A stretch of 64,000 nucleotides of DNA from Mobula hypostoma (Eukaryota). A program made the translations under genes and the position numbers. Under the pieces are notes generated by a model. It did no database searches, was not told the DNA's origin, and saw nothing but the letters and a program-made list of their open reading frames with translations. Below, one piece after another: positions 5,690-53,331 of this stretch (positions are counted from its first letter, which is position 1; the number at the start of each line of letters is the position of its first letter). Location of the stretch: assembly GCF_963921235.1 (NCBI RefSeq), contig NC_086108.1:17484001-17548000 (forward strand), in the 5' to 3' direction.

Positions 5690-6546
<857 letters not shown>

Positions 6547-15290: not shown

Positions 15291-15292
15291 AC

Positions 15293-19906: not shown

Positions 19907-19911
19907 CTTCC

Positions 19912-22950: not shown

Positions 22951-23057
22951 TGATTTAAAAGAAATAGATTACAGAGAGAGGCTACACAATGTTGTTGCTC
23001 ACAGGAATTTTGGGATCCTGGTACATAAAAAACAACAGCAAGATTCAGAAGGCAAAC

Positions 23058-23490
23058 GAAACATAGAACATCAGAGCATACAGCACAGGAACAAGCCCTT
23101 TGGCCCAATATGTCTAAGCCAAATTAATCTCTTCTCCCTACATATGACCTGTATCCTAACATTCTCTGAATATTCATCATTCATCTAAAAATCTCTTAAA
23201 CATCTCCATCATACCTACTTCCACTACTGCACTGGCAACCAATTAAAGCACCCACCACTATGTGTGTAGAAAGACTTGCCTTGTCCTTTAAATTTTCCCC
23301 ACTGACCTTAAGTTCATGTCCTCACGTACTTTACATTTCTACTCTGGGAAAAAGATTCTGGCTGTCGATCCTGTCCATGCCTCAGATAATTTCATAAACT
23401 TCTACCAGGTCTCCCCTCAGCCTGTGGTGCTCCAGAGAAAGCAACCCAAGTTATTATTCCTTATAACTCATACCCTCTAATCTAGGAAGC
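23058..23490 (-). mobile_element. Old CR1 3' fragment
   Basis: aacatagaacat tail and RT C-terminal remnants. Confidence 0.7.
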
Positions 23491-24012
23491 AGCTATATAC
23501 TCCCTGCAAAGGGGGGATAGAATTGGTGTTGCAGTCTCTTCGAGGCAAAATCAATTAGCACCAAAATAAACAGGTTCTATTCAGTTCTGGTGCTTATTAA
23601 GACAGGAGGAAAGGTAATGGGTGGGAGTGGGGAGAAGGTAATGGTGCATCTCTCATCAGATGGAGGACTCCAGGTCATTTACCCATCCCATTCTATGTGT
23701 CTGACAGGAGTAGGGTTAATGTTGGAGAAATAAGCAAAGCGTCCTATTGATGATCTTTATCAGAAGCAGATTAGCAGAGGTTAAGAATGACTTGAATGTG
23801 CTGGCCCACATGGTCAAACAGAGGACACCTTGTTCTATACACGGGGTCAGGGCTGTGGTAAGAAAATAAGAAAATCTGCCCCCTGTGGATGCCTTAATTT
23901 CCACAGCATTCACTGGTCTCAGATCAAAGTACTCCACTGTTCAACAGGAAGATTGCAAGTCACAAACTGTGATCAATCCACAGGGATTGGTACTGGGTCC
24001 ACTGTGGTTTGT

Positions 24013-26950
24013 CATAGAAACCATAGAAACTACAGCACAGAAACAGGCCTTTTGGCCCTTCTTGGCTGTGCTGAACCATTTTCTGCCTAGTCCCATTGAC
24101 CTGCACACGGACCATATCCCTCCATACACCTCCCATCCATGTATCTGTCCAATTTATTCTTAAATGTTAAAAAAGAACCCGCATTTACCACCTCGTCTGG
24201 CAGCTCATTCCACACTCCCACCACTCTCTGTGTGAAGAAGCCCCCTTTAATATTCCCTTTAAACTTTTCCCCCCTCACCCTAAACCCATGTCCTCTGGTT
24301 TTTTTCTCCCTTTGCCTCAGTGGGAAAAGCCTGCTTGCATTCACTCTATCTATACCCATCATAATTTTATATACCTCTATCAAATCTCCCCTCATTCTTC
24401 TACGCTCCAGGGAATAAAGTCCCAACCTATTCAACCTTTCTCTGTAACTGAGTTTCTCAAGTCCCGGCAACATCCTTGTAAACCTTCTCCGCACTCTTTC
24501 AACCTTATTTATATCCTTCCTGTAATTTGGTGACCAAAACTGAACACAATACTCCAGATTCGGCCTCACCAATGCCTTATACAACCTCATCATAACATTA
24601 CAGCTCCTATACTCAATACTTTGATTAATAAAGGTCAATGTACCAAAAGCTCTCTTTACGACCCTACCTACCCGTGACGCCACTTTTAGGGAATTTTGTA
24701 TCTGTACTCCCAGATCCCTCTGTTCCACTGCACTCCTCAGTGCCTTACCATTAACCCTGTATGTTCTACCTTGGTTTGTCCTTCCAACGTGCAATACCTC
24801 ACACTTGTCTGTATTAAACTCCATCTGCCATTTTTCAGCCCATTTTTCCAGCTGGTCCAAGTCCCTCTGCAGGCTCTGAAAACCTTCCTCACTGTCTACT
24901 ACACCTCCAATCTTTGTATCATCAGCAAACTTGCTGATCCAATTTACCACATTATCATCCAGATCATTGATATAGATGACAAATAACAATGGACCCAGCA
25001 CTGATCCCTGTGGCACACCACTAGTCACAGGCCTCCACTCAGAGAAGCAATTCTCTACCACCACTCTCTAGCTTCTTCCATCGAGCCAATGTCTAATCCA
25101 ATTTACCACCTCTCCATGTATACCTAGCGACTGAATTTTCCTAACTAACCTCCCATGCGGGACCTTGTCAAAGGCCTTACTGAAGTCCATGTAGACAATA
25201 TCCACTGCCTTCCCTTCATCCACTTTCCTGGTAACCTCCTCGAAAAACTCCAATAGATTGGTCAAACATGATCTACCATGCACAAAGCCATGTTGACTCT
25301 CCCTAATAAGTCCCAGTCTATCCAAATGCTTGTAGATTCTGTCTCTTAGTACTCCCTCCAATAACTTACCTACTACCGATGTTAAATTTACTGGCCTATA
25401 ATTTCCCGGTTTACTTTTCGATCCTTTTTTAAACAACGGAATAACATGAGCCACTCTCCAATCCTCCGGCACCCCACCTGTAGACAGCAACATTTTAAAT
25501 ATTTCAGCCAGGGCCCCTGCAATTTCAACACTAGTCTCCTTCAAGGTCCGAGGGAACACCCTGTCAGGTCCCGGAGATTTATCCACTTTAATTTTCCTCA
25601 AGACAGCAAGGACCTCCTCCTTTTCGATCTGTACAGTTTCCATGATCTCACTACTTGTTTCCCTTAATTCCATAGACTTCATGCCAGTTTCCTTAGTAAA
25701 CACAGACGCAAAAAACCTATTTAAGATCTCCCCCATTTCCTTTGGTTTCGCACATATCCGACCACTCTGATCTTCAAGAGGACCAATTTTATCCCTTACA
25801 ATCCTTTTGCTCTTAATATACCTGTAAAAGCTCTTTGGATTATCCTTCACTTTGACTGCCAAGACAACCTCATGTCTTCTTTTAGCCCTCCTGATTTCTT
25901 TCTTAAGTATTTTCTTGCACTTCTTATACTCCTCAAGCACCTTATTTACTCCCTGCTTCCTATACACGTCATACAACTCCCTCTTCTTCTTTATCAGAGT
26001 TGCAATATCCCTTGAGAACCAAGGTTCCTTATTCCTATTCACCTTGCCTTTAATCCTGACAGGAACATACAAATTCTGCATTCTCAAAATTTCTGCTTTG
26101 AAGGCTTCCCACCTACCGATCACATCCATGCCCGAGAACAACCTGTCCCAATCCACGCTTTTTAGATCCTTTCTCATTTCTTCAAATTTGGCCTTCTTCC
26201 AGTTAAGAACCTCAACCCTAGGACCAGATCTATCCTTGTCCATGATCAAGTTGAAACTAATGGTGTTATGATCACTGGAACCAAAGTGCTCCCCTACACA
26301 GACTTCTGTCACTTGTCCTAACTCGTTTCCTAACAGGAGATCCAATATTGCATCCCCCCTAGTTGGTCACTCTATATATTGATTTAGAAAACTTTCCAAC
26401 CATCTAGACCCCTAACAGTATGGGAGACCCAATCAATATATGGAAAATTAAAATCCCCTACCACCACAACTTTATGTTTCCTGCAATTGCCTGCTATCTC
26501 TCTGCAGATTTGCACTTCCTATTCTCTTTAACTATTGGGTGGTCTGTAATACAATCCCACTAATGTGGCCATACCTTTCCTGTTTCTCAGCTCCACCCAC
26601 AAGGACTCAGTAGACAAGCCCTCTAATCTGCCCTGCCTGAGCACTGCTATAATATTTTCCCTAACAAGCAATGCCACTCCCCCACCTTTCATTCCTCTGC
26701 CTCGATCACATCTGAAACATTGGAACCTTGGAATATTAAGCTGCCAGTCCTGCCCCTCCTGTAGCCAAGTTTCACTAATTGCTATAACGTCATAATTCCA
26801 CGTGTCAATCCACGCCCTCAACTCATCCACCTTCCCCGCAATACTCCTAGCATTGAAATATATACACCTCAGAAGATTTTTACCACCACTCACAACCTTT
26901 CTATTAGTGGATTTGCTTGAACTTTTAACATAATTTATTTTCACCCCAGT
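24013..26950 (-). mobile_element. Young CR1 LINE, nearly complete ORF2 (one stop at 25068, small deletion near 26400), inserted in an older plus-strand CR1
   Basis: ORFs 26528-26953 (endonuclease CIYFNARS, ISETWL), 25068-26345 and 24087-25064 (FADD). Tail catagaaaccatagaaac. Confidence 0.95.
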
Positions 26951-27770
26951 CAATCATAAATGATTTGGATGACAATATTGTTAACACGGTTAGTAAGTTT
27001 GTAGATGACACCAAAATTGGTGGTGTTGTAGACAGAGGGACATAGATGCAGAGAGAAGTAGGCAGAAGAATGTCAAATGGAATTTAACTCGGGCAAGTCC
27101 AAAGTTTTGGGCTTTTGTATACGAAACCGGACAGGACTTGAACAGTAAATGGCAGGGCCCTGGAGCATGTTGTAGAACAGAATTCCCTGAAAATAGATAC
27201 ACAGGTAAACAGGGCAGTGAAGAAAATGTTTGGTTTGATTGCCTTTATCAATCAGGACATTTGGTACAAGAGTTGGGATGTCATGATACAACATTGATGA
27301 GACCACACTTGGAATATTGTGTGCAGTTCCAGTCACCCAACTGGAAAGGGTGCAGAGCAGATTGATGAGGAAATGGCCAATCCTGAGTTATAAAAGGAGA
27401 ATGGACAGGCTGGGACAGTTTCTCCTGCAGCAAATGCCGCCGATACATGACCTGGTAGAGTTTTATAAAATCATGAGGATGTGAATAGGGTGAAATGTCA
27501 CCACCTTTTCCCAAGGGTAGGATAATTTAAAACAAGAGGGAATGGTTAGATGAGAGGGTACCTGAGGAAAAATTTTTCACACAGAGGGTGCTAAGTATGT
27601 GGAATTATATGCCAGAGAATGGTATAGGTATGTACAGTTACATTATTGAAAAGACATTAAACAGGTACAAGGATGGGAAATATTTAGAGGGATCTGAGCC
27701 AAAACAGGCAACTTGGTTGGCATGGAAGTGTTGGCCTGAAGATCTGTTTCTGTTCAGTGAATCGATAACT
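26951..27770 (+). mobile_element. Old degraded CR1, whose 5' part is at about 23895-24012
   Basis: gtactgggtccactgtggtttgtca before the insert continues as ataaatgatttggatgac...gatgacaccaaaattggtgg. MRPHLEYCVQF motif. Confidence 0.75.
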
Positions 27771-28414
27771 TAAAACAATTTCTGTCAGAGGTAGTTAATG
27801 CAGCACCAGAGGTGCTGACACCATCACCTGCTTAATATATGACATTGGAATTCAGGTGACTTGTGACAGGGCAGCCTTCAGGAACATGAGCATTCAGTCC
27901 CTTGTGACCGTTCCATCATTCTATGAGGTTATGGCTGCTCTCCTTTAGCAAGAATCCCATCACTGAACTCCATGTGTGTGTGAACAAGTCACAATTGGTT
28001 CATTGCTAAATAAATCTATATTCTCTGCAGTCAATCTATCAGCCATCGATTCTCTGCCTCTATAATCCACCTCTGGTTTCTGGGCTCCATTCATTATTCC
28101 TGGCTGCATGGGTTTGCTGCTGGAGTTTCAAAGTGCACCTGGAATTCCCCCAGGATCTTCCCAGCAGCTCAGATGCGGGGCTGACCAATTTTAAAAGGGC
28201 ACTTTAAAAAGACCAAAGGCTCATTTTCTTAGCCTGCTTGATGTTATTTCAGAAACAGAATCACATATGTATGTCATGAAATATGTTGTTTTGCAGTGTA
28301 AGATGTAAAAATTACTATAAGTCACAATAAATAAATAGTGAGAAAGAGGAATGTAGTAGAAGAAGAGAATTATAGGCATGTTCAGGAGGAAAGGAATAAT
28401 CAAAAACTCCTGTT

Positions 28415-28755
28415 AATGAAAAGCAAAAAACTCTCAGTTGCTGGAAATCGGAAATAAAAGTTGAAAATGCTGGAAACTCTTTGCAGGTCAGGTAGAATCT
28501 GTGGATAGAGAAACTGTTAAACATTTCAGGTCTCAGTGGTGGATCCCAGACCTGAACCATTAACTAGAACATACAGCAGTACAATACAAGAACAGACTCT
28601 GGCCCACAGTGTTATGCTGAGCTAATTAAGCTGATGACAACTAATTCCTGCTGTCTGTCCACAGTTCATATCCCCTCCCCATTCTCTTTGTTCCGTTGCT
28701 CTTTCCACAGATGCTGCCTGACCTGTCAAATTATTCCAGTATTTTCTGCTTTGTC
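28415..28755. repeat. Degenerate palindromic Penelope-terminus-derived element split by a CR1 tail (about 28566-28695)
   Basis: Left arm aaaatgctggaaact...caggtcagg..gaatctgtgga is complementary to the right arm tccacagatgctgcctgacctg...ttccagtatttt. Confidence 0.55.
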
Positions 28756-30121
28756 AATTGTTCATGAACTTTATTGGAAGCACTGTGTTTGAGGTTGGGA
28801 AGTGACTTGGCTGTGGAGATCCACACTGTTTAATAGACAGTGTGTGGACATAAATTAGAGAAAAGCAAAGGAGGAACATGAGTGAATATCTTCAGAGGGT
28901 GAGATGGGTGATGGCGTGGCGGGGATGTAGCAGGAGAGCTGTGTGGACTCTCTGAAGACAGAATGGAAGGAGTTAATCTGGAACTTCTTGTGAGCCGGAC
29001 TCTGGGATGATGGGGTTAGCTGGCAGCAAGTCCAGGATCTGGATCCATTAGCAGCCTGGATACTAACTCCCAGAGGCCGGTGCTGTCACATTGCATTATC
29101 CAGATAACTGGCCCTCTGAGTATCCCAGCCTTTCACCACAACACCTCAACTGCCCCCTAAAAATAGAAGGTGGTGGCTTCCTTCTGGCTGACTACACCGA
29201 ATACAAGTAGCAGCAGTGTATTTAACTCTGCCAGTCCTGTAGAAAAGCCAATGCTGGATTTCAGAGAAGCAGAGGGACTCTGTGATGGAGGGTGAGTGAG
29301 TGGAAGCTATGTGATTGCTGCTCACCAGTGCACACAACCACACTTCCCTCATTGCCCAAGGAGACTGTTGAGCCCCTGGTGTTCTTCCTATCCTGGGAGA
29401 TGCTCAAGTTCTCCAATATCAATTAGTTCTAGAGGGAGTTCAGAGCTTTGCACCATTATACTCAGGAGTTTATTTTCTTGCTTGATTCTGATACCAGTTA
29501 TAAGATTAACCTTTAACTGTGTCAGAGGCAGCCTCCAACTTTCTACACCCACAGCTTCATTTAAAACCGTGCTCCATAGCAACTCTTTCTGTAGCCATGG
29601 CAACCTCACATCTAACCTTGAGCATCTCTTCCCAGATGGAAGAGCCTTCATCTACTCTGCCTTTTCTGTTAACCTGGACTCAATCAGCCTCTCAGCATTG
29701 CTTCTTGAGTTTGAATAACCCCTATGTGCCTTGATCATGAGAAGGAGATGAAGCGCAGTTTATCCAAGCGCTGTCTGGTTGGCCTCAGAACATAGTACAG
29801 CACAGGACAGGCCTTTCAGGTTGTGGTGTCTGTATCAACTGTGATGTCAATTTAGGTTAGTCCCATCAGACTTCAGGTGGTCTGTATCCCTCCCTCTCTG
29901 CTTGTTCATGAGCCTCTTTAAATGACTCTTAAACCTTGCTATTGTATCTGCTTCCACCACTTGCCCTGGCAACACATTCCAAGCACCTCCACTCTGACAA
30001 AAACTTGTACATTTTCTTTAAACTTTTCTCCTCTCACCAATGTCTCTAGTATTTGACATTTCCAATTTAGGAGACCAACTATCTACCCTAGCTGTGCTCT
30101 TTATAATGTTATATATTTCGA

Positions 30122-30915
30122 ACATGCTGCCTAACAGTGACTTCTTCACTTGCATCTTCAGAAACAGCTCTATCTTTAATATCCCTTTTTTCCCTTTTCA
30201 GAGTTCTTTTGAAGATCCTGACCCAGAGTTACACGCTGACTTCAGTTTTTTGCAGAAATGGGACTCATTCTCAGGGCCTCACGACCAGCTGCTTTTCGAC
30301 ATGCCTGGAAGACTAGCGCTCCTTCAGGGTGCCGGATTTTCATGGCTCAGGAGATGGGCGGATTCAAGGCCGGTGCCGTCACCAGATGTATTGTGGGAGT
30401 ACACGGAAGATCGAAAGCAGCGAGCTGGCTGCTGGCTGTGTGCCCGAAGACCGGAGTTCTTTGGGCACAGAGCTCGGAAAAAGCGATGCAACAGAAATTT
30501 AACACCATAAATCAGTGAGCTGATTTGTTATGTCTCCTCTCTTGCTGTGAAACTGGGACACCTCCTTTTCCCTTATTAGGGAGAGAGAGAGCCTGTGGTC
30601 TGTCGAATTACCGGGTGAATTTGCAGTCCTTGGGTTACTGCAAGTCTGTGACTTTATTGATGCTTTGCTACATGCTTGAGTGCTTGGTGGCGGGTGCCAA
30701 TGCTTTTTGCAAGTGGGGGAGGGGGGGGTCATTACTTTGCTGTTGCCTATGCATGGGAGGGGGGAGTTAAGGGAAGCTTTGCGGTTCTAACATTTAACTG
30801 TCATTCATTCTTTGGGACACTCCTCTGTTTTTGTAGATGTTTATGAAGAAAAAGAATTTCAGGATATATATTGGATACAGTTCTTTGACATTAAATGTAC
30901 CTATTGAAATTGAAA
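30122..30915 (+). mobile_element. Non-autonomous LINE-derived element with Rex1/L2-like tail
   Basis: Non-coding, GC-rich body ending ...gacattaaatgtacctattgaaattgaaat. Confidence 0.5.
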
Positions 30916-32330
30916 TCTCAGTCTTTGCCACTCTACAGAAAGTGATGCATTTGTCCAACCTCACCTTTTAGCTAATATTGTGTACACCAGGTAATATCTG
31001 GAGAAACATCTTCAGCACCCTCTCCAAAGTCTCTATATCTCTGAATTTTTTCAATGATTTTAAGTTGCCTGGCCCCCACCACTTTATTTTCACCATGGAT
31101 GTCCAGTCCCTATATACTTCCACCCCCCACCAGGAAGGTCTCAAAGCTCTCCGCTTCTTTTTGGATTCTAGACCTAACCAGTTCCCCTCTACCAACACTC
31201 TGCTCCGTCTAGTGGAATTAGTCCTTACTCTTAATAATTTCTCCTTTGGCTCCTCCCACTTCCTCCAAACTAAAGGTGTAACCATGGGCACCCATATGGG
31301 TCCCAGCTATGCCTGCCTTTTAGTCGGCTTTGTGGAACAATCAATGTTCCAAACCTATTCTGGTACCTGTCCCCCACTTTTCCTTCGCTATATCAACGAC
31401 TGCATTGGCGCTGCTTCCTGCACGCATGCTGAGCTCGTTGACTTCATTAACTTTGCCTCCAACTTTCACCCTGCCCTCAAGTTTACCTGGTCCATTTCCA
31501 ACACCTCCCTCCCCTTTCTTGATCTTTCTGTCTCTATCTCTGGAGCCAGTTTATCTACTGATGTCTACTATAAGCCTACTGACTCTCACAGCTATCTGGA
31601 CTATTCCTCTTCTCACCCTGTCTCTTGCAAAAATGTCATCTCCTTCTCGCAATTCCTCCGTCTCTGCTGCATCTGCTCTCAGGATGAGGCTTTTCATTCC
31701 AGGACAAAGGAGATGTCCTCCTTTTTAAAAGAAAGGGGCTTTCCTTCCTCCACCATCAATTCTGCTATCAAACGCATCTCCCCCATTTCACGCACATCTG
31801 CTCTCACTCCATCCTCCCGCCACCCCACTAAGAATAGGGTTCCCCCTGTCCTCACCTACCACCCCACCAGCCTCTGGGTCCAACATATAATTCTTCGTAA
31901 CTTCTGCCACCTCCAATGGGATCCCACCACTAAGCACATCTTTCCCTCATCCCCTCTCTCTGCTGTCAGCAGGGATCGCTCCCTACGTGACTCCCTTGTC
32001 CATTCGTCCCCCCCCATCCCTTCCCACCGATCTCCCTCCCGGCACTTATCCTTGTAAGCGGAACAAGTGCGACACATGCCCTTACACTTCCTCCCTCACT
32101 ACCATTCAGGGCCACAAACAGTCCTTCCAGGTGAGGCGACACTTCACCTGTGAGTCAGCTGGGGTGATAAACTGCGTCCGGTGCTCCCGATGCGGCCTTC
32201 TATATATTGGTGAGACCCGATGCAGGCTGGGAGACCATTTCGCTGAACACCTATACTTTGTCCGCCAGAGAAAGCAGGATCTCCCAGTGGCCATACATTT
32301 TAATTCCACGTCCCATTCCCATTCTGATAT

Positions 32331-35174
32331 TGATGCAGATTGTTATTAATGATTATGATATAGTTGGGATCACAGAGACATGGCTCCAGGGTGACCAGGG
32401 ATGGGAGCTCAACGTTCAGGGATATTCAATATTCAGGAGGGATAGACATGAAGGAAGGGGAGGTGGGGTGGCGTTGCTGGTTAAAAAAGAGATTAACGCA
32501 ATAGAAAGGAAGGACATAAGCCGGGAAGATGTGGAATCGATATGGGTAGAGCTGCGTAACACTAAGGGGCAGAAGACGCTGGTGGGAGTTGTGTACAGGC
32601 CACCTAACAGTAGTAGTGAGGTCGGAGATGGTATTAAACAGGAAATTAGAAATGTGTGCAATAAAGGAACAGCAGTTATAATGGGTGACTTCAATCTACA
32701 TGTAGACTGGGTGAACCAAATTGGTAAAGGTGCTGAGGAAGAGGATTTCTTGGAATGTATGCGGGATGGTTTTTTGAACCAACATGTCGAGGAACCAACT
32801 AGAGAGCAGGCTATTCTGGACTGGGTTTTGAGCAATGAGGAAGGGTTAATTAGCGATCTTGTCGTGAGAGGCCCCTTGGGTAAGAGTGACCATAATATGG
32901 TGGAATTCTTCATTAACATGGAGAGTGACATAGTTAATTCAGAAACAAAGGTTCTGAACTTAAAGAGGGGTAACTTTGAAGGTATGAGACGTGAATTAGC
33001 TAAGATAGACTGGCAAATGACACTTAAAGGATTGACGGTGGATATGCAATGGCTAGCATTTAAAGGTTGCATGGATGAACTACAACAATTGTTCATCCCA
33101 GTTTGGCAAAAGAATAAATCAAGGAAGATAGTGCACCCGTGGCTGACAAGAGAAATTAGGGATAGTATCAATTCCAAAGAAGTAGCATACAAATTAGCCA
33201 GAGAAAGTGGCTCACCTGAGGACTGGGAGAAATTCAGAGTTCAGCAGAGGAGGACAAAGGGCTTAATTAGGAAGGGGAAAAAAGATTATGAGAGAAAACT
33301 GGCAGAGAACATAAAAACGGACTGTAAAAGCTTTTATAGATACGTAAAAAGGAAAAGACTGATAAAGACAAATGTAGGTCCCCTGCAGACAGAAACAGGT
33401 GAATTGATTATGGGGAGCAAGGACATGGCAGACCAATTGAATAATTACTTTGGTTCTGTCTTCACTAAGGAGGACATAAATAATCTTCCAGAAATAGTAA
33501 GGGACAGAGGGTCCAGTGAGATGGAGGAACTGAGTGAAATACATGTTAGTAGGGAAGTGGTGTTAGGTAAATTGAAGGGATTGAAGGCAGATAAATCCCC
33601 AGGGCCAGATGGTCTGCATCCCAGAGTGCTTAAGGAAGTAGCCCAAGAAATAGTGGATACATTAGTGATAATTTTTCAAAACTCGTTAGATTCTGGACTA
33701 GTTCCTGAGGATTGGAGGGTGGCTAATGTAACCCCACTTTTTAAAAAAGGAGGGAGAGAGAAACCGGGGAATTATAGGCCGGTTAGCCTAACGTCGGTGG
33801 TGGGGAAACTGCTGGAGTCAGTTATCAAGGATGTGATAACAGCACATTTGGAAAGCGGTGAAATGATCGGACAAAGTCAGCATGGATTTGTGAAAGGAAA
33901 ATCATGTCTGACGAATCTCACAGAATTTTTTGAGGATGTAACTAGTAGAGTGGATAGGGGAGAACCAGTGGATGTGGTATATTTGGATTTTCAAAAGGCT
34001 TTTGACAAGGTCCCACACAGGAGATTAGTGTGCAAACTTAAAGCACACGGTATTGGGGGTAAGGTATTGGTGTGGGTGGAGAATTGGTTAGCAGACAGGA
34101 AGCAAAGAGTGGGAATAAACGGGACCTTTTCAGAATGGCAGGTGGTGACTAGTGGGGTACCGCAAGGCTCAGTGCTGGGACCCCAGTTGTTTACAATATA
34201 TATTAATGACTTGGATGAGGGAATTAAATGCAGCATCTCCAAGTTTGCGGATGACACGAAGCTGGGTGGCAGTGTTAGCAGTGAGGAGGATGCTAAGAGG
34301 ATGCAGGGTGACTTGGATAGGTTGGGTGAGTGGGCAAACTCATGGCAGATGCAATTTAATGTGGATAAATGTGAAGTTATCCACTTTGGTGGCAAAAATA
34401 GGAAAACAGATTATTATCTGAATGGTGGCCGATTAGGAAAAGGGGAGGTGCAACGAGACCTGGGTGTCATTATACACCAGTCATTGAAAGTGGGCATGCA
34501 GGTACAGCAGGCGGTGAAAAAGGCGAATGGTATGCTGGCATTTATAGTGAGAGGATTCGAGTACAGGAGCAGGGAGGTACTACTGCAGTTGTACAAGGCC
34601 TTGGTGAGACCACACCTGGAGTATTGTGTGCAGTTTTGGTCCCCTAATCTGAGGAAAGACATCTTTGCCATAGAGGGAGTACAAAGAAGGTTCACCAGAT
34701 TGATTCCTGGGATGGCAGGTCTTTCATATGAAGAAAGACTGGATGAACTGGGCTTGTACTCGTTGGAATTTAGAAGATTGAGGGGGGATCTGATTGAAAC
34801 GTATAAGATCCTAAAGGGATTGGACAGGGTAGATGCGGGAAGATTGTTCCCGATGTTGGGGAGGTCCAGAACGAGGGGTCACAGTTTGAGGATAGAGGGG
34901 AAGCCTTTTAGGACCGAGATTAGGAAAAATTTCTTCACACAGAGAGTGGTGAATCTGTGGAATTCTCTGCCACAGCAAACTGTTGAGGCTAGTTCATTGG
35001 CTATGTTTAAGAGGGAGTTAGATATGGCCCTTGTGGCTACAGGGGTCAGGGGGTATGGAGGGAAGGCTGGGTTCTGAGTTGGATGATCAGCCATGATCAT
35101 AATAAATGGCGGTGCAGGCTCGAAGGGCCGAATGGCCTACTCCTGCACCTATTTTCTATGTTTCTATGTTTCTA
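32331..35174 (+). mobile_element. Young CR1 LINE with uninterrupted ORF2 (endonuclease plus RT), lacking only the extreme N-terminus
   Basis: Open frame to the stop at 35077 (GITETWL, MGDFN, SDHN, FADD). Tail (tttctatg)n. 6-bp TSD TGATAT at 32325-32330 and 35175-35180. Confidence 0.96.
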
Positions 35175-35519
35175 TGATATGTCTATCCACGGCCTCCTCT
35201 ACTGTCAAGATGAAGCCACACTCAAGTTGGAGGAACAACACCTTATATTCCGTTTGGGTAGCCTCCAACCTGATGGCATGAACATTGACTTCTCTAACTT
35301 CTGTTAATGCCCCACCTCCCCTTCGTACCCCATCCATTATTTATTTATTTATTTATTTATTATTATATCTTTTTTTCTCTCTCCTTTTTCTCCCTCTGTC
35401 CCTCTCACTATACTCCTTGCCCATCCTCTGGGCTTCCCCCCTCCCCCTCCTGTCTTCTCTTATCATTTTGGATCTCCCCCTCCCCCTCCCACTTTGAAAT
35501 CTCTTACTATATCTTCTTT

Positions 35520-35561
35520 CAGTTAGTCCTGATGAAGGGTCTTGGCCCGAAATGTCAACTG
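35520..35561 (+). ncRNA. Minimal type I hammerhead ribozyme motif in the Penelope 3' terminal repeat (mutated)
   Basis: agtc CTGATGA a gggtcttggccc GAAA tgtc aact. CpG-type changes relative to the 52127 copy. Confidence 0.6.
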
Positions 35562-36140
35562 TACCTCTTCCTATAGATGCTACCTGGCCTGCTGCGTTCA
35601 CCAACAATTTTTATGTGTGTTGCTCTTTATATCCTTTCTGTAACATGACAACCAGGACTGCATGCAATATTCTAAAAGTGGTTTAACCAAAGTTTTATAT
35701 AGCTGCAACATGACTTGGTGATTCTTATACTCAGTGCCCTAACCAATGAAATCAGGTTTGACAGATGCAATCTTTATAATCCTACCTACATGTGCTGCTG
35801 CTTCCAGGAAGCTAGACAATCTGCACATCAATGCCCTTTAAGGTCCTTCCACTTACTGTAAATTTCCCCTTTATATTTGACTTTCTAAGGATAAAACTCC
35901 ATCTGCCATTTCCCTGCCCATGTCTGCCACTGATCTATATCCTCTGGCAACATTCCTCACCATCCACAACACTGACAATTTTTGTAGTCCTCTGCAAACT
36001 CACTCATCAACCCACCCACATTTTCAGCAAAATCATCTATGTAAATCACAAAGGGAATTCTTCTTGCAGCTTAACTTTATGCTTGCTTATGTTTGTATAA
36101 TTATACTGTTTATCTGAAAATGGTAAATGGATTTTCAGTC

Positions 36141-36365
36141 AATGCAGACAAAATGCTGAAGGAACTCAGCAGCCCGGGCAGCATCTATAGAAAAGAGTAC
36201 AGTCGACATTTCAAGCCAAGGCTCTTCATCAGTCCTGATGAAGGGTCTTGGCCAGAAACGACTGTTGACTCTTTTCCATAGATGCTGCCTGGCCTGCTGA
36301 TTTCCTCCAGCAATTTATGTCTGTTGCTTGGATTTCCAGCATGTACAGATTTTCTTGAGTTTGCA
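36141..36365. repeat. Palindromic element formed by two back-to-back Penelope termini
   Basis: Arms about 36143-36232 and 36235-36325 are reverse complements centred on TTCATCAG-tc-CTGATGAA. Confidence 0.85.
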
Positions 36366-36464
36366 ATTGATTTTTAGTAATTTGTAGCATAACTGGTTCT
36401 GTATTTTTGTAGTTTCTTTGTTTGCAAACATGTGTCATGCCGACATAATTCAAACTACCTCATA

Positions 36465-36760
36465 GTTCAAAGTTCAAATTTATTATCAAACTATGTATAT
36501 CATATACAGCCTTGAGATTCATCTTCTTGCAGGTACTCACAAAACAAAGAAACACAATAGAATCCATGAAAAACTACACACAACAAAGACCGACAAACAT
36601 CCAAAGTACAAAGGAGGATAAATCGCGTGACTAGTAAAAAAGTAAACAAATACACATGGAACACAAACTGAAGGATCTCCGAAAGTGAGTCCACAGCTGT
36701 GGATCCCATTCTGTGCAGAGGCGTGTGAAGCCTGTCTAGGAGCCCGATGGCTGCAAGACA
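36465..36760 (-). mobile_element. Rex1/Babar-like LINE 3' tail
   Basis: agttcaaagttcaaatttattatcaa tail, homologous to 51560-51892 in reverse. Confidence 0.6.
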
Positions 36761-36762
36761 AC

Positions 36763-38409
36763 AACATACTTCTCTTTGGTATTCACCAATGAGAGGGAAC
36801 TTGATGACGATGAGGACAATATGAGTGAGGTTGATGTTCTGCAGCATGTTGATATTAAGGCAGAGGAGGTATTGGAGTTATTAAAATACATTCGGACGGA
36901 TAAGTCCCTGGGGCCTGACGGAGTGTTCCCCAGGCTGCTCCACAAGGCGAGGGAAGAGATTGTTGATCCTCTTTATGTCCTCGTTGTCCACGGGAATGGT
37001 ACTGGAGGATTGGAGGGAGGCAAATGTTGTCCCCTTGTTCAAAAAAGGTAGTAGGGATAGTCCGGGTAATTACAGACCACTGAGCCTTATGTCTGTGGTG
37101 GAAAAGCTGTTGGAAAAGATTCTCAGAGATAGGATCTATGGGCATTTAGAGAATCATGGTTCGATCAGGGACAGTCAACATGGCTTTGTGAAGGGCAGAT
37201 CGTGTCTAACAAGGCTGATAGAGTTCTTTGAGGAGGTGACTAGGCATATAGATGAGTGTAGTACAGTGGATGTGATCTACATGGATTTTAGTAAGGCATT
37301 TGACAAGGTTCCACATGGTAGGCTTATTCAGAACGCCAGAAGGCATGGGATCCAGGGAAGTTTGGCCAGGTGAATTCAGTATTGGCTTGCCTGCAGAAGG
37401 CAGAGGGTTGTGGTGGAGGGAAAACATTCGGATTGGAGGGTTGTGACTAGTGGTGTCCCACAAGGATTGGTTCTGGGACCTCTACTTTTCGTGATTTTTA
37501 TTACCGACCTGGATGTGGGGGCAGAAGGGTGGGCTGGCAAGTTTACAGATGACACAAAGGTTGGTGGTGTTGTGGATAGTGTGGAGGACTGTTGAAGATT
37601 GCAGAGAGACATTGATAGGATACAGAAGTGGGCCGAGAAATGGCAGATGGAGTTCAACCCGGAGAAGTGTGAGGTGGTACACTTTGGAAGGACAAACTCC
37701 AAGGCAGGGTACAAGGTAAATGGCAGGATACTTGGTAGTGTGGAGGAGCAGAGGGATCTGGGGGTACATGTCCATAGATCCCTGAAAGTTGCCTCACAGG
37801 TAGATAGGGTAGTTAAGAAAGCTTATGGGGTGTTAGCTTTAAGAGTCACGAGGTAATGATGCAGCTCTATAAAACTCTGGTTAGGCCACACTTGGAGTAC
37901 TGTGTCCAGTTCTGGTCACCTCACTACAGGAAGGATGTGGAAGCATTGGAAAGGGTACAAAGGAGATTTACCAGGATGCTGCCTGGTTTAGAGAGTATGC
38001 ATTACAATCAGAGATTAAGGGTGCTGGGGCTTTACTCTTTGGAGAGAAGGAGGATGAGAGGAGACATGATAGAGGTGTACAAGATAATAAGAGGAATAGA
38101 TAAGAGTGGATAGCCAGCGCCTCTTCCCCAGGGCACCACTGCTCAATACAAGAAGACATGGCTTTAAGGTAAGGGGTTGGAAGTTCAAGAAGGATATTAG
38201 AGGAAGGTTTTTTACTCAGAGAGGTTGATGTGTGGAATGCACTACCTGAGTCAGTGGATACACTAGTGAAATTTAAGACTACTTGACAGGTATATGGAGG
38301 AATTTAAGGTGGGTGGGGGGTTATATGGGAGGCAGGGTTTAAGGGTCAGCACAACATTGTGGGCCGAAGGGCCTGTACCATGCTGTAGTATTCTATGTTC
38401 TATGTTCTA
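36763..38409 (+). mobile_element. 5'-truncated CR1 LINE, degraded
   Basis: ORF pieces 36960-37373, 37410-37595, 37599-37856 and 37856-38113. Tail ttctatgttctatgttcta. Confidence 0.92.
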
Positions 38410-39448
38410 ATTTGCTGGTATTTAATTGAATTCATTCTTCCCTCTACCAGTGAAATATTCCCTGTGCACTGGCTGCAATACAAGCCTAAAGCATGATCAA
38501 TCCACCCCCATGCTTAACAGTGGAGAGGTGTTCTTTTTATGAAATTCTGCCCCCTTTTGTCTCCAAACATACCTTTGCTCATTGCGGCCAGAAAGTTCTA
38601 TTTTAACTTCATCTGTCCAAGGACTTGTTTCCAAAATGCATCAGGCTTGTTTAGATGTTCCTTTGCAAACTTCTGACGCTGAATTTTGTGGTGAGGATGC
38701 AGGAAAGGTTTTCTTCTGATGACTCTTCCATGAAGGTCATATTTGTGCAGGTGTCGCTGCACAGAGGAACATTGCACCACCACTCCAGGGTCTGCTAAAT
38801 CTTCCTGAAGGTCTTTTGCAGTCAAACGGGGGTTTTGATTTGCCTTTCTAGCAATCCTACAAGCAGTTCTCTTGGAAGGTTTTCTTGGTCTTCCAGGCCT
38901 CAACTTGGCCTCCACCGTTCCTGGTAACTGCCATTTCTTAATTACATTACGAACTGAGACAACAGCTACCTGAAAACACTTTGCTATCTTCTTATAGCCT
39001 TCTCCTGCTTTGTGGGCATCATTTATTTTAATTTTCAGAGTGCTAGGCAGCTGCTTAGAGGAGCCCATGGCTGCTGATTGTTGGGACAAGGTTTGAGGAG
39101 TCAGGGTATTTATAAAGCTTTGAAATTTGCATCACCTGGGCTTTCCTAATGATGACTGTGAACAAGTCATAGCCCTAACAAGCTAATTAAGGTCTGAGAC
39201 CTTGGTAAAAATTAACTGAGAACTCAAATCTCTTGGGGTGCCCAAACTTTTGCATGGTGCTCCTTTCCTTTTTTTCCACTCTAAAATTGTACAAAACAAA
39301 AATAATACACTAATCTTGCTAAAATGTTGAAAAGAAGGATTGATCTTTAACTTTATGACTTTTGGAGATCAGTTCATCTTCTACTCACGTAATTATTCAC
39401 AGTAACAGAAATTTTGACCAGGGGTGTCCAAACTTTTGCATGCTACTG
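38410..39448 (-). mobile_element. Tc1 transposon, 5' half (IR/DR-type left end plus N-terminal transposase)
   Basis: ORF 38598-39089 with HKAGEGYKKIAK and GRPRK paired-like HTH. TIR CAGTAGCATGCAAAAGTTTGGACACCCC flanked by TA (39449-39450). Inner direct repeat near 39235-39256. Confidence 0.92.
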
Positions 39449-39867
39449 TATATATAGTAGGGGTGCCTAAGACTTTTGCACATTACTGTAGTAACTTATG
39501 TATTGTATTGTAGCACTGTCACAGAAAAAAACAAATTTCATGACCTATATGAGTAATGATAAACCTGATTCTGATATGAGTCTCTATTGTGAACTGAGAG
39601 AGAGAGAGAGTGGATCATGATTTGGAAAAGGGAAAGGAAGAGGGAAGAACCAGAGAGCTATTTTGTAATGATCAATAAACCAATTGTTTGGAATCAAATG
39701 ACCTTGCCTGGTGTTTCACTGCTGGGTGTGACTGCATCTGTGCCATCCCCTGCCCTGGCACTCCTTTTCTGCCACCTGTCCCACATCCCTCCCACCCTTG
39801 CTGTTCCCAACATCCTTTGCTCCTGTCAGACTTACAAACTTGCCCTTCGCTCCATGTTAACAAATAG

Positions 39868-39916
39868 AGTACTGTACAAAAGTCTTAGGCACTATGTAAG
39901 ACTTTTGTACAGTACT
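39868..39916. mobile_element. Tc1/mariner-type mini-MITE: perfect 20-bp inverted repeat with 9-bp spacer; a related half copy is at about 39461-39490
   Basis: AGTACTGTACAAAAGTCTTA-ggcactatg-TAAGACTTTTGTACAGTACT. Confidence 0.8.
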
Positions 39917-39919
39917 ATT

Positions 39920-40207
39920 TGACTGTTTGGATAGACAGACATAGTCAGCATGGCTTTGTGCATGGTAGGTCATGTCTAACCAATCTTTTTAAGTTTTTCA
40001 AGGAAGTTACCAGGAAAGTTGATGAAGGCAAGGTCGTGGACATTTTCTACATTGACTTTAGCAAGGCACTTGACAAGGCCCCACATGGGAGGTTGGTCAA
40101 GAAAGTTCAGTTGCTCAGCATTCAGAATGAGGTAGTAAATGGGATTACACATTGGCTTTGTGAGAGAAGCCAGAGAGTGGCAGTAGATGGTTGCCTCTCT
40201 GACTGGT
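39920..40207 (+). mobile_element. CR1 RT internal fragment
   Basis: SQHGFVHGRSCLTNL...DFSKALDKAPH. Confidence 0.8.
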
Positions 40208-40209
40208 AA

Positions 40210-41220
40210 GGAAGGACACTGCACAGGATTGTAAAGAGCTGCAGAAAGTTATAAACTCAGCCAGTTCCATCATGGGCACTAACCTTCCCAACAGTGAGGA
40301 CACCTTTAAAATGTGATGCCTCAAAAAGGTGGCATCCACCATTAAGGACCCCCATTTCATTCAACTATCAAGGGGAGATGCAAGAACCTGAAGACACACA
40401 GTCAACATTTCAGGAACAGCTTCTTCCCCTCTGCCATCAGATTTCTGAACGGACAATGAACACATGAACACTTCCTCAGTACTTCCCCCCTCTCTTTTCG
40501 CACGACTTAATAAATTAATTTTTATATATATTTCTTATTGTAATTTATTTTTATTATGTATGGTAATGTACTGCTGCTGCAAAACAAATTCCATCACATA
40601 GTAATATGTGATATTAAACCTGATCTGATTCTACTACCTCGAGATTCATTTTCTTGTAGGCATTTACAGGAAAAATAAAGAAATACAACAAAATCCAGAA
40701 GAAAACTATATGTAAACGAAGACTGACAAACAACAAACGTGCAAAAGACAAACTGTGCAAATAAAAAAGTAATGCTGAGAACATGAGTTGTAAAGGAGTT
40801 CTTGAAAGTGAGTGCGTAGGTCGTAGAATCAGTTCAGAGTTGTGGTCAGTGAAGGTATCCATGAGATTCAGAAGCCTGAAGGCAGTATGTTAATAACTGT
40901 TCCTGAATTTGGTGGTGAGGCACCCAAGGCTTCTGTACCTCCTGGCCATTAGTGAGAAGAGAGCATGGTTTTGATGATACGGATCTTTGATAATGGATGC
41001 TGCTTTCTTGTACTCAATGGTGGGGAGGGCTTTGACTGTGATAGATTGGACTTGTGCCAACACTTTCTGCAGTTTTTTTTCCATTTCTGGGCTTTGGTGT
41101 TTTCATACCAGGCCATGATGCAACCAGTGCAAGGTACTCCACTATACAAATTTGTCTAAGTTTTTGGTGACATACTGAATCTACACAAAATAGAATCTAA
41201 GAAAGTGGAGGCGCTGTCAT
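40210..41220. mobile_element. Two Rex1/Babar-like fragments tail-to-tail (plus about 40210-40630, minus about 40635-41220)
   Basis: KKAASIIKDP..HALFSL..RRYRSL..TTKFRNS motifs on both strands. Confidence 0.7.
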
Positions 41221-42250
41221 GTCCTCTTTGTGATGTCATTTGCGTGCTGCTTCCATATATACATTTTCTTCCCTTTTTCAACTAAATTTGTAACATCTTC
41301 CATCACCCTAAGTTTCCTAACATTGCCATCCTTGTCTTTCACCCTCACGAAAAAAAATTTCGTGCCAATTCTGACTAATTGGCTTTTATACGACTCCAAC
41401 ATCACAGTTTCTACCAATCTATTTCCCTCAGCACACGAATCTGCCATTTAGCATATACTGCTCTTGCCACAGGCCTATCTCTTCTTTACAAGTATATCTG
41501 AAGCATAGTCACGGCTAGTAGGACTGCTACCCCACAGCTCCAGTGATTCAGATTCATTCCTGACCTCCAGCGCTGTCTGTGAGGCGTTTGCATGAATCCC
41601 CTGTGACCAGGTGGGTTTCCTTCCACATTCCAAAGACATGCTGGTTGGTAGGTTAGTTGCCCTCAGTGTGTAGGTGAGGGTGGAGACGGGGTGGGGGGAA
41701 GCATTGAGGGGAATGTGTATAAAATAAATCAATGGGGTTAGTATAGAATTAGGGTAAAAAAGGGTGCTCGGAGGTCAGTTTGGGTATATTTACATGCTCT
41801 GTATAATTCAGTGCCTAAGTATATAGAATTTCTTTTGAAAGGTAATATTAAATCTGTTAACAATGCACTCCCAGACCGTGGATTCCTGAATATTTCTCAA
41901 CATAGAAAGAAAAATATTTTTGCATTTCTGTCACTCCAAAGATTAAGCAGTTTGTTTGGCCAGTGCCTCAAACCTTTGCCCTCCCTGTCCTCCACCTCAG
42001 CCTTGCAGTCATCTACCTGCGTAACAAGCCCATAGTTTCACCTGAACCCACCGTTATGTGGATGGGAATGTTGTTCAAGAGCTGAAAAGAGCAGAGCTAA
42101 GTATATTCCACACTGCAAATCACAATAATTTATTCCAGCTCTCAAAAAAGAACCAAATGATGAACAAAAATATTGTAGTTTTAAGTTAACCATGTTGCCA
42201 TTAAAAACCACATTTCCCTGTAACTACAACACTTTATTCTGCATTCTTTT

Positions 42251-42908
42251 TGTGTTGCCCTTAAGGCATTTATTTGACTTTCTTGGGTCTACGTTTTAAA
42301 TGACTTGTTTGAAACTATTTTCTAGTTAAAGTTGAAGGTTGATAATTAAGTTAGAGGTAAATTCATTGTCTATGGTATACCACGGCATGTGATGACGTCA
42401 CCTCCGTTTCGCCACGTCTTATGGTAACTTCCGGTTCGGAGAAGGTGTGAAGGTGGGTGGTATGCGTGCAGCGTGTTCGTGAAGAGCTCCGTTTCTACCC
42501 ACAAAGAAACATTATAGAAGCAACGCCGTAAGTTCATATGAAAGTATTTGAAGTAAAAATATTAATGCGGTTTCTGTTAAGGAAGCAGCGGTTCGGGCTG
42601 GCGTGCGTGCCAGCTTTTCAATTTCAAACGCGGGGTGGGCTCGAGCCCGGCGGTGGTTTGACGCGACGCCCTCGCCCGCTACTCAGGGCGGCTGGAGACA
42701 CTCGCTAAAAGAAAAGAGTGCGTGTGGTCTCCAGAATGAAACAGACACTGTATATGTTTGTATTTTTTATCAACAGTTTTCACCATATGACATTAATGTG
42801 GAAGAGTGAACAGTAAACAGTTAACCTGCCTACGACTCTGTCTTCATTGGCTCTGGTTTAACTTGGTGTTTAGTCAAGAGTTTCAACACAGTGCACGAGA
42901 ACACTACA
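42251..42908. mobile_element. Solo LTR (658 bp) with 5-bp TSD CTTTT, CpG-rich
   Basis: Starts TGT and ends ACA. CTTTT occurs at 42246-42250 and 42909-42913. It interrupts a Rex-like tail that rejoins across it. Confidence 0.75.
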
Positions 42909-45304
42909 CTTTTAGTTTTCCTAGGCACTACCTCAATCATTGTTGTAATAAAACCTGTATGGATGGCGTGCAAAAACAAAGTTGTTTTTTAAAAATGTAC
43001 CATGATAATAAACCAATTTAAAAATACCCGCGTTCTCCATCAAAACCCACTGAAATGTTGAACACCTCCAGTAAATGCCTCCTTAACCTGTTCTGCTTCT
43101 CATTCATAGTGTTGTAAATCATGGAAGCAGGTCACCAGCCCACTACGTTTAAACTTACCAATATGTACCCATCCTTATCAATCCCACTTGTAGCACTTGA
43201 CCATAGCCTTTTATGGCTGGGTGATTTAAGAGCTCCTCTAGACACTTCTTAAATGCTGTCAGCAACTTTACTTTCACCACTCTCTCAGGCAATGCCTTCA
43301 AGGTACTCACCACCTTTTGGGTGAGAAAGGCCCCTCCAAATCTCTTGCTCGTCATATTAATCTGTTATTCACCTCTGATACTGGAAACAGTACTGCACTC
43401 TACCCTATCTATGGGATGTATGGAGTACCTAGGTGGAAATAGCACCTCTGGTAAAGGGGATTGTCGTCTTCATTCCAGGGCAAATCACTCAGCTCTCACC
43501 TGTGGCTCCAAGTAGCTGTTTGCATGTCACAGCAGCCACACCCCAGTACCCTGCTTCAACAGGTGGGGTAGACCAACAAGGGTAGCTGGTGGCCTCATAC
43601 ACCACTGAGAGAGGCGCATGCCTGTCCTAGCATGCGAAGTCAGCTCCGGTGGCCTGGGTGAATGCGATCTGCAGTGAGATCCAGTGGCCTGGAAGGTGGT
43701 ACAGCAACACATCATGATGAGTGAAGGCCATGACAAGGCACAGAAGATATCATGATCATCCACTGCAACCAAGGGAAATCTCAGTTTGTAGCACCAGACC
43801 CGGACTTCTGAGGTTGAGAGAGTGGAACTGCCACAGTGCAACACCTTCTCCACTTTAAAAACTCTCCCACACAGGTTTCCTGCCCTAGTTGGACATGATG
43901 GACAACCACCACCCTATTTGCACTCCTGGTACTTTAATCATGTCCCCTCTTAACTTTCTCTGCTCCAGAGAGAACAGACGCAGCCTCTTCAGACTCAAGT
44001 TCAAATTTATTGTCATCTGACCATACATATATACAACCGAACAAAAGAATATTCCCCAGACCATGGTGTATTCACAACACATATATCACACACAGTAAAC
44101 AGCTCACTTTCCTAGTGACTTCATTGGTTGCGACAGTGAGCATAAGGGTCAGGACAACATGCTACATCTGTATAAAACTTTAATTAGGCTGCACTAGTGT
44201 GAGGTTCTGATTGCCACATTGCAGGAAGGAGGTAGAGCCTTTAGAAAGGTTTACCAGAATGCTGTCTCGATTAGAAGGTGTGTCTATAAGGAGGGGTTGT
44301 CCTCTCCTTATACTCTACACTGTGCCCAGGTCAGAGAATTTTCACTTCTAATCCTCTGCCTACTGTCTACCATCACTGCACAATCCCACCCCTGATTGCC
44401 TCCCAGCCAAGAGAAGAGCAAGAAGGCTCTTCCTCACTGAAGTGTATGATGCTCACCTTATATTCTTACGTAAATCTAGCATTTATAAACAACCAATAAA
44501 GAAAAGTTACAATTTTTTTAAACATGGGTGCAATAGTGGCTCAGCTGGTAGAGACGTTGCCTCGTAGCTTCAGAAACCCGGGTTTAACCCCAATGTCTGG
44601 TGCATTGGTGTGAAGTTTCTATGTGCTCCGTGACCGCATGTGTTCATGCCAATCAAGTTGCCTATCTGAGCTAGTCTCATCTGTCTGCACTTGGCCCTAA
44701 CTCCTTGAAATTTTTCTTGTCCAAATATCTTTCAGCATTGTTACTGTAGCTGCCCAGAAGAAGGCAATGGCAAAACCACTTCTATAGGAAAATTTGTGAA
44801 GAACAATCATGGTCATGATAACACCATGACCACCCACATCATACCACAACCACACAATGATGTTGACTGCAGCTGCCACTACTCTGTGTGAAAAATAAAC
44901 TCCCGCCAGGTAACATTTAAATGCTCCTTTCATCTTAAATCTTTACTCTTTGGGGAAAAAGAATATGCCTATCTAGCTTTCCACACCCTTCATGATTTTA
45001 TAAACCTCTATAAGGTCACCCCTCATCCTTCTGTACTGTAGGGAAAGCAAGCCAAGCCCATCGAATCTTAATAACTCAAGCTCTCTAGTCATGAAAATAT
45101 CCCTGTGATGGTGAGACCTATGCACCCGTAACCCTATTTCACAAATGCCCCACCCACATATCTAAAGTCCTTCATCCTACTGACATCTGGACGCCAATCA
45201 CAGTTGCTCCACTGATGAGCACCGCGGCAGCAGCCAAACCCCACTTGGGCAGGAAGGAGAACCCTGTACCACCACGACAGGTACTGTGCTCATCCACTCC
45301 CACT

Positions 45305-45905
45305 CCACAAGACCATAAGACATAGGAGCATAATGAGGCCATCTGGCCCATCGAATCTGCTCCACCATTCAATCATGGCTGGTCCTTTTCTCTTCTCTTC
45401 CTCAACCCCATTTCCTGGCCTTCTCCCTGTAAACCTTCGATGCCATGTTCAATCAAGAACCTATCAGTCTCTGCCTTAAATACACCGTATGACCTGGCCT
45501 CCAAAGCTGCATGTGGCAACAAGTTCCACAAACTTACCACCCTTTGGTTAAAGAAATTTCTCTGCATCTCTGTTTTGAAAGGGCACCCCTCTATCCTGAG
45601 GCTGCAGCCTCTTGTCCTAGACTCTCCCACCATGGGAAACATCCTTTTCACATCTACTCTGTCTAGGCCTTTCAACATTCGAAACGTTTCAATGAGATCC
45701 CCCCCTCATCCTTCTGAATTCCAGTGAGTATAGACCCAGAGCCATCAAATGTTTCTTGTATGATAACCCTTTCATTCCTGGAGTCATTCTTGTGAACCTC
45801 CTCTGGACCCTCTCCAATGCCAGCACATCTTTTCTAAGATGAGGGGCCCAAAACTGTTCAGAATACTCAAGGTGAGGTCTTACCAGTGCTTTATAAAGTC
45901 TCAGC
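45305..45905 (-). mobile_element. CR1 3' fragment
   Basis: LYKALVRPHLEYSEQFWAP and FFNQRVVSLWNLLP. Tail accataagacatagg. Confidence 0.88.
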
Positions 45906-46266
45906 ACCTCTCCTACAGCCATTTCCAGCAGATCTCTCACAGTGGGCGGACAGCTCCAGCGCTCCACCATGCAATCAGCTCTGCAGTGACAAGTGCCATG
46001 CTGTGCTGGGCTAAATGAGGGGGGTTGGGGAGGGGCCGATCGCCTGCAGTTAGTGAGCACTGCTATCGGCCACTCCAGGATGCTGTGTGCCTGCCAACTG
46101 CTTGCAGCTGGATCATTGTACTGGGGAAACAACCCGGGCTCAGTGTGAATGGGTTGTACCACTGTGGAGTATAATTTACAGCTCAGCACACCCTGCACAG
46201 ACCTCACTACACACTGATCTTTTTATTAAGAAATATATTGGACTCTGGCACAGAGACTGGGCCTGA

Positions 46267-49200: not shown

Positions 49201-49503
49201 AGATATAAATTATAAATCAAAAGAAGATAAAGTAATACCAAATGTTAGAATCACACTTGCAATCACATTATCCTACATTCATGTATAGTTTTTTTACTCA
49301 GAGAGTGGTGAGTGCGTGGAATGGTCTGCCAGCAACGGTGGTGGAGGCGGATACGATAGGGTCTTTTATAAGACTTTTGGATGGGTACATGGAGCCTAGT
49401 AAAATAGAGGGCTATAGGTAAGCCTAGTAATTTCTAAGGTAGGGACATGTTTGGCACAACTTTGTGTGCATTGTGCTGTAGGTTTTCTATGTTCTATGTT
49501 CTA
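46267..49503 (+). mobile_element. Degraded CR1 LINE with insertions at about 48139-48804 and 49150-49288
   Basis: ORF pieces 46324-46869, 47166-47471, 47489-47764 and 48829-49170. Tail ttctatgttctatgttcta. Confidence 0.9.
48139..48804 (+). mobile_element. Non-autonomous GC-rich element (AAGATGG-type 5' end, LINE-like tail)
   Basis: Starts aggagaagatggtggcgcg and ends gacaataaacgagg...ataatcta. Near-TSD ATATAAGA / ATATAGGA, and the CR1 frame rejoins across it. Confidence 0.65.
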
Positions 49504-51892: not shown

Positions 51893-52039
51893 AGAAGGAG
51901 ATCCTACCATTTATCCATACTGACTGTGGTCCCCTGATGAGGATCTAATTGCAGTGGGAGGTACAGAGACCCAGGTTTTGAAGCTTGTTGATGGCTTCCA
52001 GCTGTGCCATCAACAATTTTACTAACGCAGACGCAATCC

Positions 52040-52225
52040 CTCCTATCATTTCTATCATTTCCTATCATTTTGGATCTCCCTCTCCACCTCCCACTTTCAA
52101 ATCTCTTTCTATCTCTTCTTTCAGTTAGTCCTGACGAAGGGTCTCACCCCGAAACGTCGACTGTACCTCTTCCTATAGATGCAGCCTGGCCTGCTGCGTT
52201 CACCAGTACTTTTTATGTGTGTTGC
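52040..52225 (+). mobile_element. Isolated Penelope 3' terminal fragment
   Basis: Close similarity to 35460-35623. Confidence 0.85.
52127..52162 (+). ncRNA. Minimal type I hammerhead ribozyme motif with intact core
   Basis: Stem I AGTC/GACT, core CTGACGA, stem II GGG/CCC, GAAA, palindromic ACGT stem III, GUC cleavage triplet (cut after 52158). Confidence 0.72.
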
Positions 52226-53310: not shown

Positions 53311-53331
53311 AACAGTCCCTTCAACTCTTTC

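Follow-up and report, generated by a model that had tools for sequence, protein, structure and literature searches.

Insertions of Penelope-like elements (PLEs) typically consist of a copy with an inverted truncated copy beside it, a tail of 30-40 nt on one side only and a short target-site duplication (TSD), as set out in the available parts of PMC3846280 and PMC8557442. Palindromes at such inverted junctions are taken in the former as signs of self-priming (PMC3846280). The way in which PLEs generate inverted pseudo-LTRs (pLTRs) and tails on one side only is named as an open point in both PMC8557442 and PMC11167929. According to the latter, the anole PLE (PAc), a predicted dimer with a preference for AT-rich sites, cuts both target strands and extends them, and its RT starts at two sites that bound the tail; its hammerhead motif requires the PLE protein and is dispensable for insertion (PMC11167929). 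Minimal hammerheads are described as inactive in the form of single motifs and weak as dimers, and opposite-strand pairs of them, 100-700 bp apart, have been reported before (PMC4209133).

In the window, the whole 64,000-nucleotide stretch of Mobula hypostoma DNA analysed here, a hairpin of 226 bases was computed at 36140-36365, with an MFE of -128 kcal/mol against -61.8 +/- 5.0 kcal/mol for shuffled sequences (n = 200; z -13.2). The hairpin of two inverted arms claimed by an earlier sequence-only reading of this DNA is real, and the centre that it had named is in place (Table 1). The inverted arms (36140-36232 versus 36235-36325) are alike in 76 of 87 ungapped columns and in 76 of 97 columns when gaps are counted. 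The same reading had called both arms Penelope 3' termini, which is borne out by the match of the right arm to the pLTR of an ORF-bearing PLE that ends 0.5 kb upstream of the palindrome. A TGTCTG seemingly common to both arms proved to be an alignment artefact, with the C at different positions. We consider that the palindrome is very probably an old and very short, dead-on-arrival, one-event insertion of a hammerhead-bearing PLE, in which two 5'-truncated pLTR ends lie head to head. It is an ordinary case of the published inverted-pLTR PLE pattern and not a new element, since both self-cutting motifs are broken and the insertion pattern is a known one.

Table 1 Features of the palindrome and its surroundings, in window coordinates.
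Feature	Position	Strand	Basis or remark
Left target-site duplication, ATGGATTTTCAGT	36127..36139	+	11/13 match to 36366-36378
Left arm: inverted 5'-truncated pLTR end without tail	36140..36232	-	Outer end equals end of the window's solo copies; arm alignments
Minimal hammerhead remnant	36200..36232	-	Core present; TCAGGA in place of the stem I 5' arm; G-U as first stem II pair; sense in RXR pre-mRNA
Junction, CTTCATCAG-TC-CTGATGAAG	36224..36243	.	Sits at TCAG/CTGA inverted match
Right arm: direct 5'-truncated pLTR end	36230..36326	+	Agrees with the pLTR at 35529-35622 (ORF-bearing copy) in 78/87 ungapped columns
Minimal hammerhead remnant	36230..36264	+	Stem I present; cleavage triplet deleted; first stem II pair G-A
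One-sided PLE tail, ~39 nt	36327..36365	+	Without significant left counterpart; family depth drops after it
Right target-site duplication, ATTGATTTTTAGT	36366..36378	+	11/13 match to 36127-36139
Decayed 5'-truncated ORF-bearing PLE (RT, Cys linker, GIY-YIG-type endonuclease), same pLTR at its end	31040..35623	+	9/10 TSD at 31030 and 35624
Second, older inverted pair	28411..28768	.	9/10 TSD (28411, 28759); left-arm tail; asymmetric junction near 28530; no intact core
RXR intron (~48 kb) holding both palindromes, between two AF-1 coding exons	14374..63665	-	Exons in ORFs 63288-63665 and 14374-14805

The palindrome entered as one insertion event, because one TSD encloses both arms and thus the whole unit. 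The look for TSDs at the 36-kb palindrome turned up an 11/13 direct repeat, a match that was equalled by 7 of 3000 random position pairs and by 1 of 179 AT-rich pairs. Solo copies in the window carry similar TSDs, namely 9/10 for the long copy (31040-35623) and 18/20 for the 52-kb copy. Family contig depth begins at about 36140 and is over by 36370; in run X1, it rises from 26 to 20,566 across 36131-36150, at the left edge of the palindrome, and is down to 488 at 36371-36390, past the tail. The palindrome therefore shows the structural features of an EN+ PLE insertion, with an inverted 5'-truncated copy at the 5' end, a one-sided tail of 30-40 nt and a short TSD, and its derivation from the inverted-terminus structure of Penelope insertions, as the earlier reading had inferred, is upheld. 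The left flank was also considered as a decayed second tail and rejected, because 650 of 5000 random pieces scored equally high, as did 432 of 5000 shuffles. No empty-site joint was found among the joints listed (15 of 471; contigs of four runs). Two independent solo insertions, or a later rearrangement, could also have set the arms side by side by chance; the arms differ by 13-22%, and PLEs are able to target their own pLTR according to the available text of PMC11167929. Against this, a single TSD surrounds the pair, the junction is flush at a microhomology and the same junction recurs elsewhere, and chance juxtaposition is the least probable of the readings considered here.

The ORF-bearing PLE is split in its endonuclease region by a CR1-type LINE of ~2.8 kb (~32335-35175), the joins of which show a short TGATAT-like duplication. 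Its RT gives a weak match to Pfam RVT_1 (E 0.016), and the nearest Atlas clusters hold RT with HTH_animal (score 0.97). After the RT, a Cys-rich linker (CKRNKCDTC) and then a YIG-bearing segment with a C, C, H, H pattern were recognised by eye; Pfam GIY-YIG gave no match in this ORF. A Zn-finger-like motif between RT and EN is described as a feature of the Neptune clade (PMC8557442), and the layout of the ORF, as read from its translation, fits endonuclease-bearing PLEs, with Neptune as the probable clade. The repeat that makes up the palindrome's arms is present in the window in four more copies that have a core-like motif, at 13771, 35529, 52131 and 58738. At the short solo PLE end 52011-52244, the direct repeat (18/20) is of unusual length, and the 5' junction includes a few letters that lack an explanation. 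The short PLE end at 13771-13870 belongs to another subfamily and lies within a long minus-strand retroelement remnant (~11.8-14.3 kb), and no TSD was found for it with the boundaries tried.

The two strands each carry one CTGATGA...GAAA motif, as had been claimed, and the damage described for them was confirmed: the plus motif lacks three nucleotides before the cleavage site, and the minus motif is without a proper stem I 5' arm. In the contigs of four runs, the minus remnant differs from the family majority at 36214, 36218, 36221 and 36223, and the A of the plus remnant at 36254 is replaced by C or T in ~97% of the family depth in run X1. Since the family majority differs at these positions, the stem II departures of both remnants represent private decay. 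An A-U pair in the stem II of the left arm was rejected as family covariation, the majority having G and C there. In the predicted hairpin, 9 of the 11 hammerhead core bases are paired at a probability above 0.9, and opening them would cost 16.2-16.8 kcal/mol. Compared with functional minimal hammerheads, the core is damaged, a second motif on the same strand is absent from the unit and the core is inaccessible in the predicted fold. Transcription of a head-to-head pair always reaches the antisense arm first. From these models, self-cleavage is not expected of either hammerhead of the palindrome. A search of the whole window against Rfam with E up to 1 gave 0 matches; motifs as small as minimal hammerheads evidently escape its models, and this result is therefore no evidence either way.

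Four public runs (organisms A, B, C and D) supplied contigs for alignment to 35951-36550 at 80% likeness, and 40-60 thousand contigs per run fitted this region. Among the 32 pieces listed, five bridge the centre with at least 31 letters on each side, and all four runs are represented. These five pieces have 18-19 other letters each and therefore stem from other loci, so that the centre recurs. Four further listed pieces cross the centre by 24-26 letters. Ten of the junction-letter rows listed (12 of 297) join the left to the right arm, and 9 of these 10 do so without this centre, a figure that expresses variety and not frequency because same-centre contigs are absent from the joint listing; indels of the reference itself, near 36259-36267, may have broken the alignment and so produced some of the joints. 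Among the other-centre rows listed, two turn in stem II, one turns in the palindromic word that spans the cleavage site, and the others are asymmetric. The fixed centre looked for in the family is thus found in part: the same centre is present at other loci in four organisms, but other centres occur too.

Individual joints illustrate these forms. In run X11, joint 36204-36280 is a palindromic variant that turns in stem II (depth 242.7), and in run X5, joint 36213-36302 has the same centre with an internal deletion (depth 46.6); both are possibly multi-copy, contig depth not being copy number. Joint 36204-36268 of run X11 is a head-to-head junction located in the palindromic word that spans the predicted hammerhead cleavage site.

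A TCAG/CTGA inverted match is native to the uninverted copies at 35505-35545 and 52107-52147, where it lets the cDNA fold at this same position into an interrupted hairpin of 8 bp. When four solo copies were folded, the native inverted match was present in two (-3.8 and -3.6 kcal/mol) and looser in a third, and the fourth had none here. Since uninverted copies already contain this match, the recurring centre indicates a junction hot spot and not a unit moving whole. The native match itself predicts recurrence, and a fixed centre therefore cannot separate a mobile unit from repeated formation.

The sequence-only reading had proposed a MITE-like or retrozyme-like family that is mobilised as a unit. 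In such a case, a palindrome with the same centre (TCAG-TC-CTGA) would be transcribed and re-mobilised whole, in trans, by PLE protein as a non-autonomous hairpin-shaped unit. The recurrence of the centre in four organisms agrees with this, as do the depths of the same-centre deleted form (46.6) and the stem II-centred form (242.7), with the same reservation on contig depth, and pLTR sequences are reported to suffice for trans mobilisation in rotifers (PMC3846280). On the other hand, the left end coincides with the end of solo copies, as separate priming of a cDNA would predict and random 5' truncation would not, the native inverted match already explains the centre, and the RT would have to copy through a duplex of ~90 bp. 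The depth at 36221-36223, left of the centre, is just 5-7% of that at 36249 in the four runs, a crude measure, given that contig depth does not equal copy number and that palindromes interrupt assemblies. We regard re-mobilisation of the unit as improbable. The proposed family is also unsupported by the form of the palindrome, as the ends are not mutual inverted repeats and the motifs stand head to head and not in tandem, and by the junctions, as 9 of the 10 left-to-right junction rows listed show other centres and the recurrent one sits on the native match.

The second inverted pair had been placed by the earlier reading at 28415-28755 and described as an older palindrome of the same design. 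An older inverted pair is indeed present, with a fold z of -6.1 and a 9/10 TSD that was matched by 23 of 1000 in the null, and its arms are 80% alike to an old copy at 58753-58871. Its design is another one: the junction lies in stem II, an insert of ~120 nt (~28567-28688) splits the right arm and the CTGANGA..GAAA core is absent from both arms. The pair is an independent older event of the same process in another subfamily, and not a copy of the 36-kb unit. The insert at 28567-28688 is weakly like 38346-38412 (E 0.023) and is probably the tail of another retroelement.

For a one-event PLE insertion at the 36-kb site, the following course seems plausible. The PLE endonuclease would cut an AT-rich site with a stagger of 10-13 nt, in line with the TSD observed. 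The RT would start at two internal pLTR sites, one with the tail and one without it, as suggested by the anole PLE (PMC11167929) together with the unequal ends of the palindrome. Both cDNAs would halt after ~95-135 nt, near the hammerhead, and the native TCAG/CTGA match, immediately 5' of the hammerhead core, may serve to join them head to head; the match is observed, and its use in joining is presumed. Such pairs would arise repeatedly in this pLTR family, with this spot as a frequent junction but not the sole one. After insertion, the arms would decay separately, with the hammerheads as passengers and any hairpin in the RXR pre-mRNA as a by-product.

Two-ended priming followed by annealing via TCAG/CTGA would account for the TSD, the unequal ends and the junction, and we lean towards priming from both target strands over fold-back. 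Fold-back self-priming of one cDNA is a lesser though real possibility; it would explain the junction equally well, but less simply the stop at the tail-less start. Decay of the arms has gone too far for a choice between the two routes.

The earlier reading had assigned the surrounding pre-mRNA to RXRG. The host is indeed an RXR gene on the minus strand, but gamma is unconfirmed: among solved structures, the RXR hinge exon matches RXR-alpha best (E 7e-21), with RXR-gamma at 8e-7 on a shorter construct. Positions 1-83 of Pfam PF11825 fall in ORF 63288-63665 and positions 77-110 in ORF 14374-14805, and zf-C4 is found in 6238-6546. Since the AF-1 Pfam positions are split over the two ORFs, the palindrome lies deep in one intron of ~48 kb, more than 20 kb from either flanking exon. 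Immediately behind the RXR DNA-binding exon, the following intron holds a tandem array of ~64-nt units (5680-6310; families D9, D15 and D18). In organism B, both junctions between the palindrome and its flanks are present (5 and 1 other letters), and the insertion therefore predates at least the split of A and B. Organism D contributes a contig that spans 36340-36532 (16 other letters), of which only 26 letters are tail.

The long hairpin envisaged in the host pre-mRNA would fold there, with a predicted -124.6 kcal/mol on the transcribed strand. The host might have kept it as a regulatory RNA structure in the RXR intron, serving as an editing substrate, a small-RNA source or a splicing modulator, and this strong predicted fold, its presence at the orthologous site in organism B, perhaps also in D, and the siRNA reported from inverted Penelope repeats in Drosophila (PMC3681739) speak for such a role. 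However, the arms have diverged (76 of 97 columns alike), and among the rows listed (40 of 273) the arm-specific departures from the family majority include one mirrored pair, 36218/36249, which is a CpG site that varies in about half of the family. The otherwise unmirrored changes argue against upkeep of the hairpin. The distance to either exon, the 161 inverted pairs in the window, mostly LINEs, and the huge abundance of the palindrome's own family weigh in the same direction, and we consider retention by the host very unlikely. A-to-I editing or dicing of the hairpin would, by analogy, be unsurprising. The 161 inverted repeat pairs (window 1-64000) lie within RXR introns and are mostly fragments of CR1-type LINEs, and some inverted pairs in the window are 92-94% complementary over at least 200 nt.

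Patterns of the palindrome family gave 0 matches in viral contigs, 0 in metagenome contigs and 0 in prokaryotic genome contigs. Loci with a centre-only pattern (65 viral and 12 metagenome) were considered as relatives and taken as chance matches, since in all 77 the match went no further than 20-24 nt. No palindromic PLE family with a fixed centre was found in the literature searched, the scope of which left out most subscription journals and Repbase reports. Had the palindrome spread as a unit, it would represent a non-autonomous retroelement in hairpin form, a MITE look-alike with self-silenced hammerheads, of a kind unfound in that literature. As a one-event insertion, it matters little as a single locus. 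As a class, mini head-to-head insertions in a PLE-rich genome form a natural data set on how inverted pLTRs and one-sided tails are made, and young pairs would reveal whether the arms come from one cDNA, as in fold-back, or from two separately primed cDNAs.

MITEs are short, non-coding, hairpin-forming non-autonomous DNA transposons flanked by TSDs. Unlike them, the palindrome lacks terminal inverted repeats at its very ends, since the 39-nt tail is present on the right side only; its sequence is that of a retroelement pLTR and its TSD is like those of solo PLE copies. Non-LTR retrozymes, in the available text on them, share with the palindrome a non-coding nature, derivation from a PLE pLTR and a type I hammerhead, whereas they form head-to-tail tandems with intact hammerheads on one strand and the palindrome is head to head with one broken motif per strand (bioRxiv 10.64898/2026.07.22.740005). 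It is a single unit, without the tandem units and at least two consecutive complete hammerheads of a retrozyme. With the minimal hammerheads of PMC4209133, its remnants have in common the CUGANGA core, an additional base ahead of stem II, the GAAA, the lack of a true helix III and a stem I of 5 bp; unlike the opposite-strand pairs described there, its two cores, both damaged, are separated by 2 nt. The same head-to-head inverted 5'-truncated copy, with a short overlap or palindrome at the junction, is described for Pen2a_Av of Adineta vaga (PMC3846280; scheme in PMC8557442, Fig. 2), and insertions of this type likewise have a one-sided tail of 30-40 nt and a TSD of the 8-10 bp class around the whole unit (PMC3846280, PMC8557442). 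Unlike Pen2a_Av, the palindrome resides in a vertebrate host and both of its copies are only ~95-135 nt long, so that no ORF is left and the unit is one hairpin.
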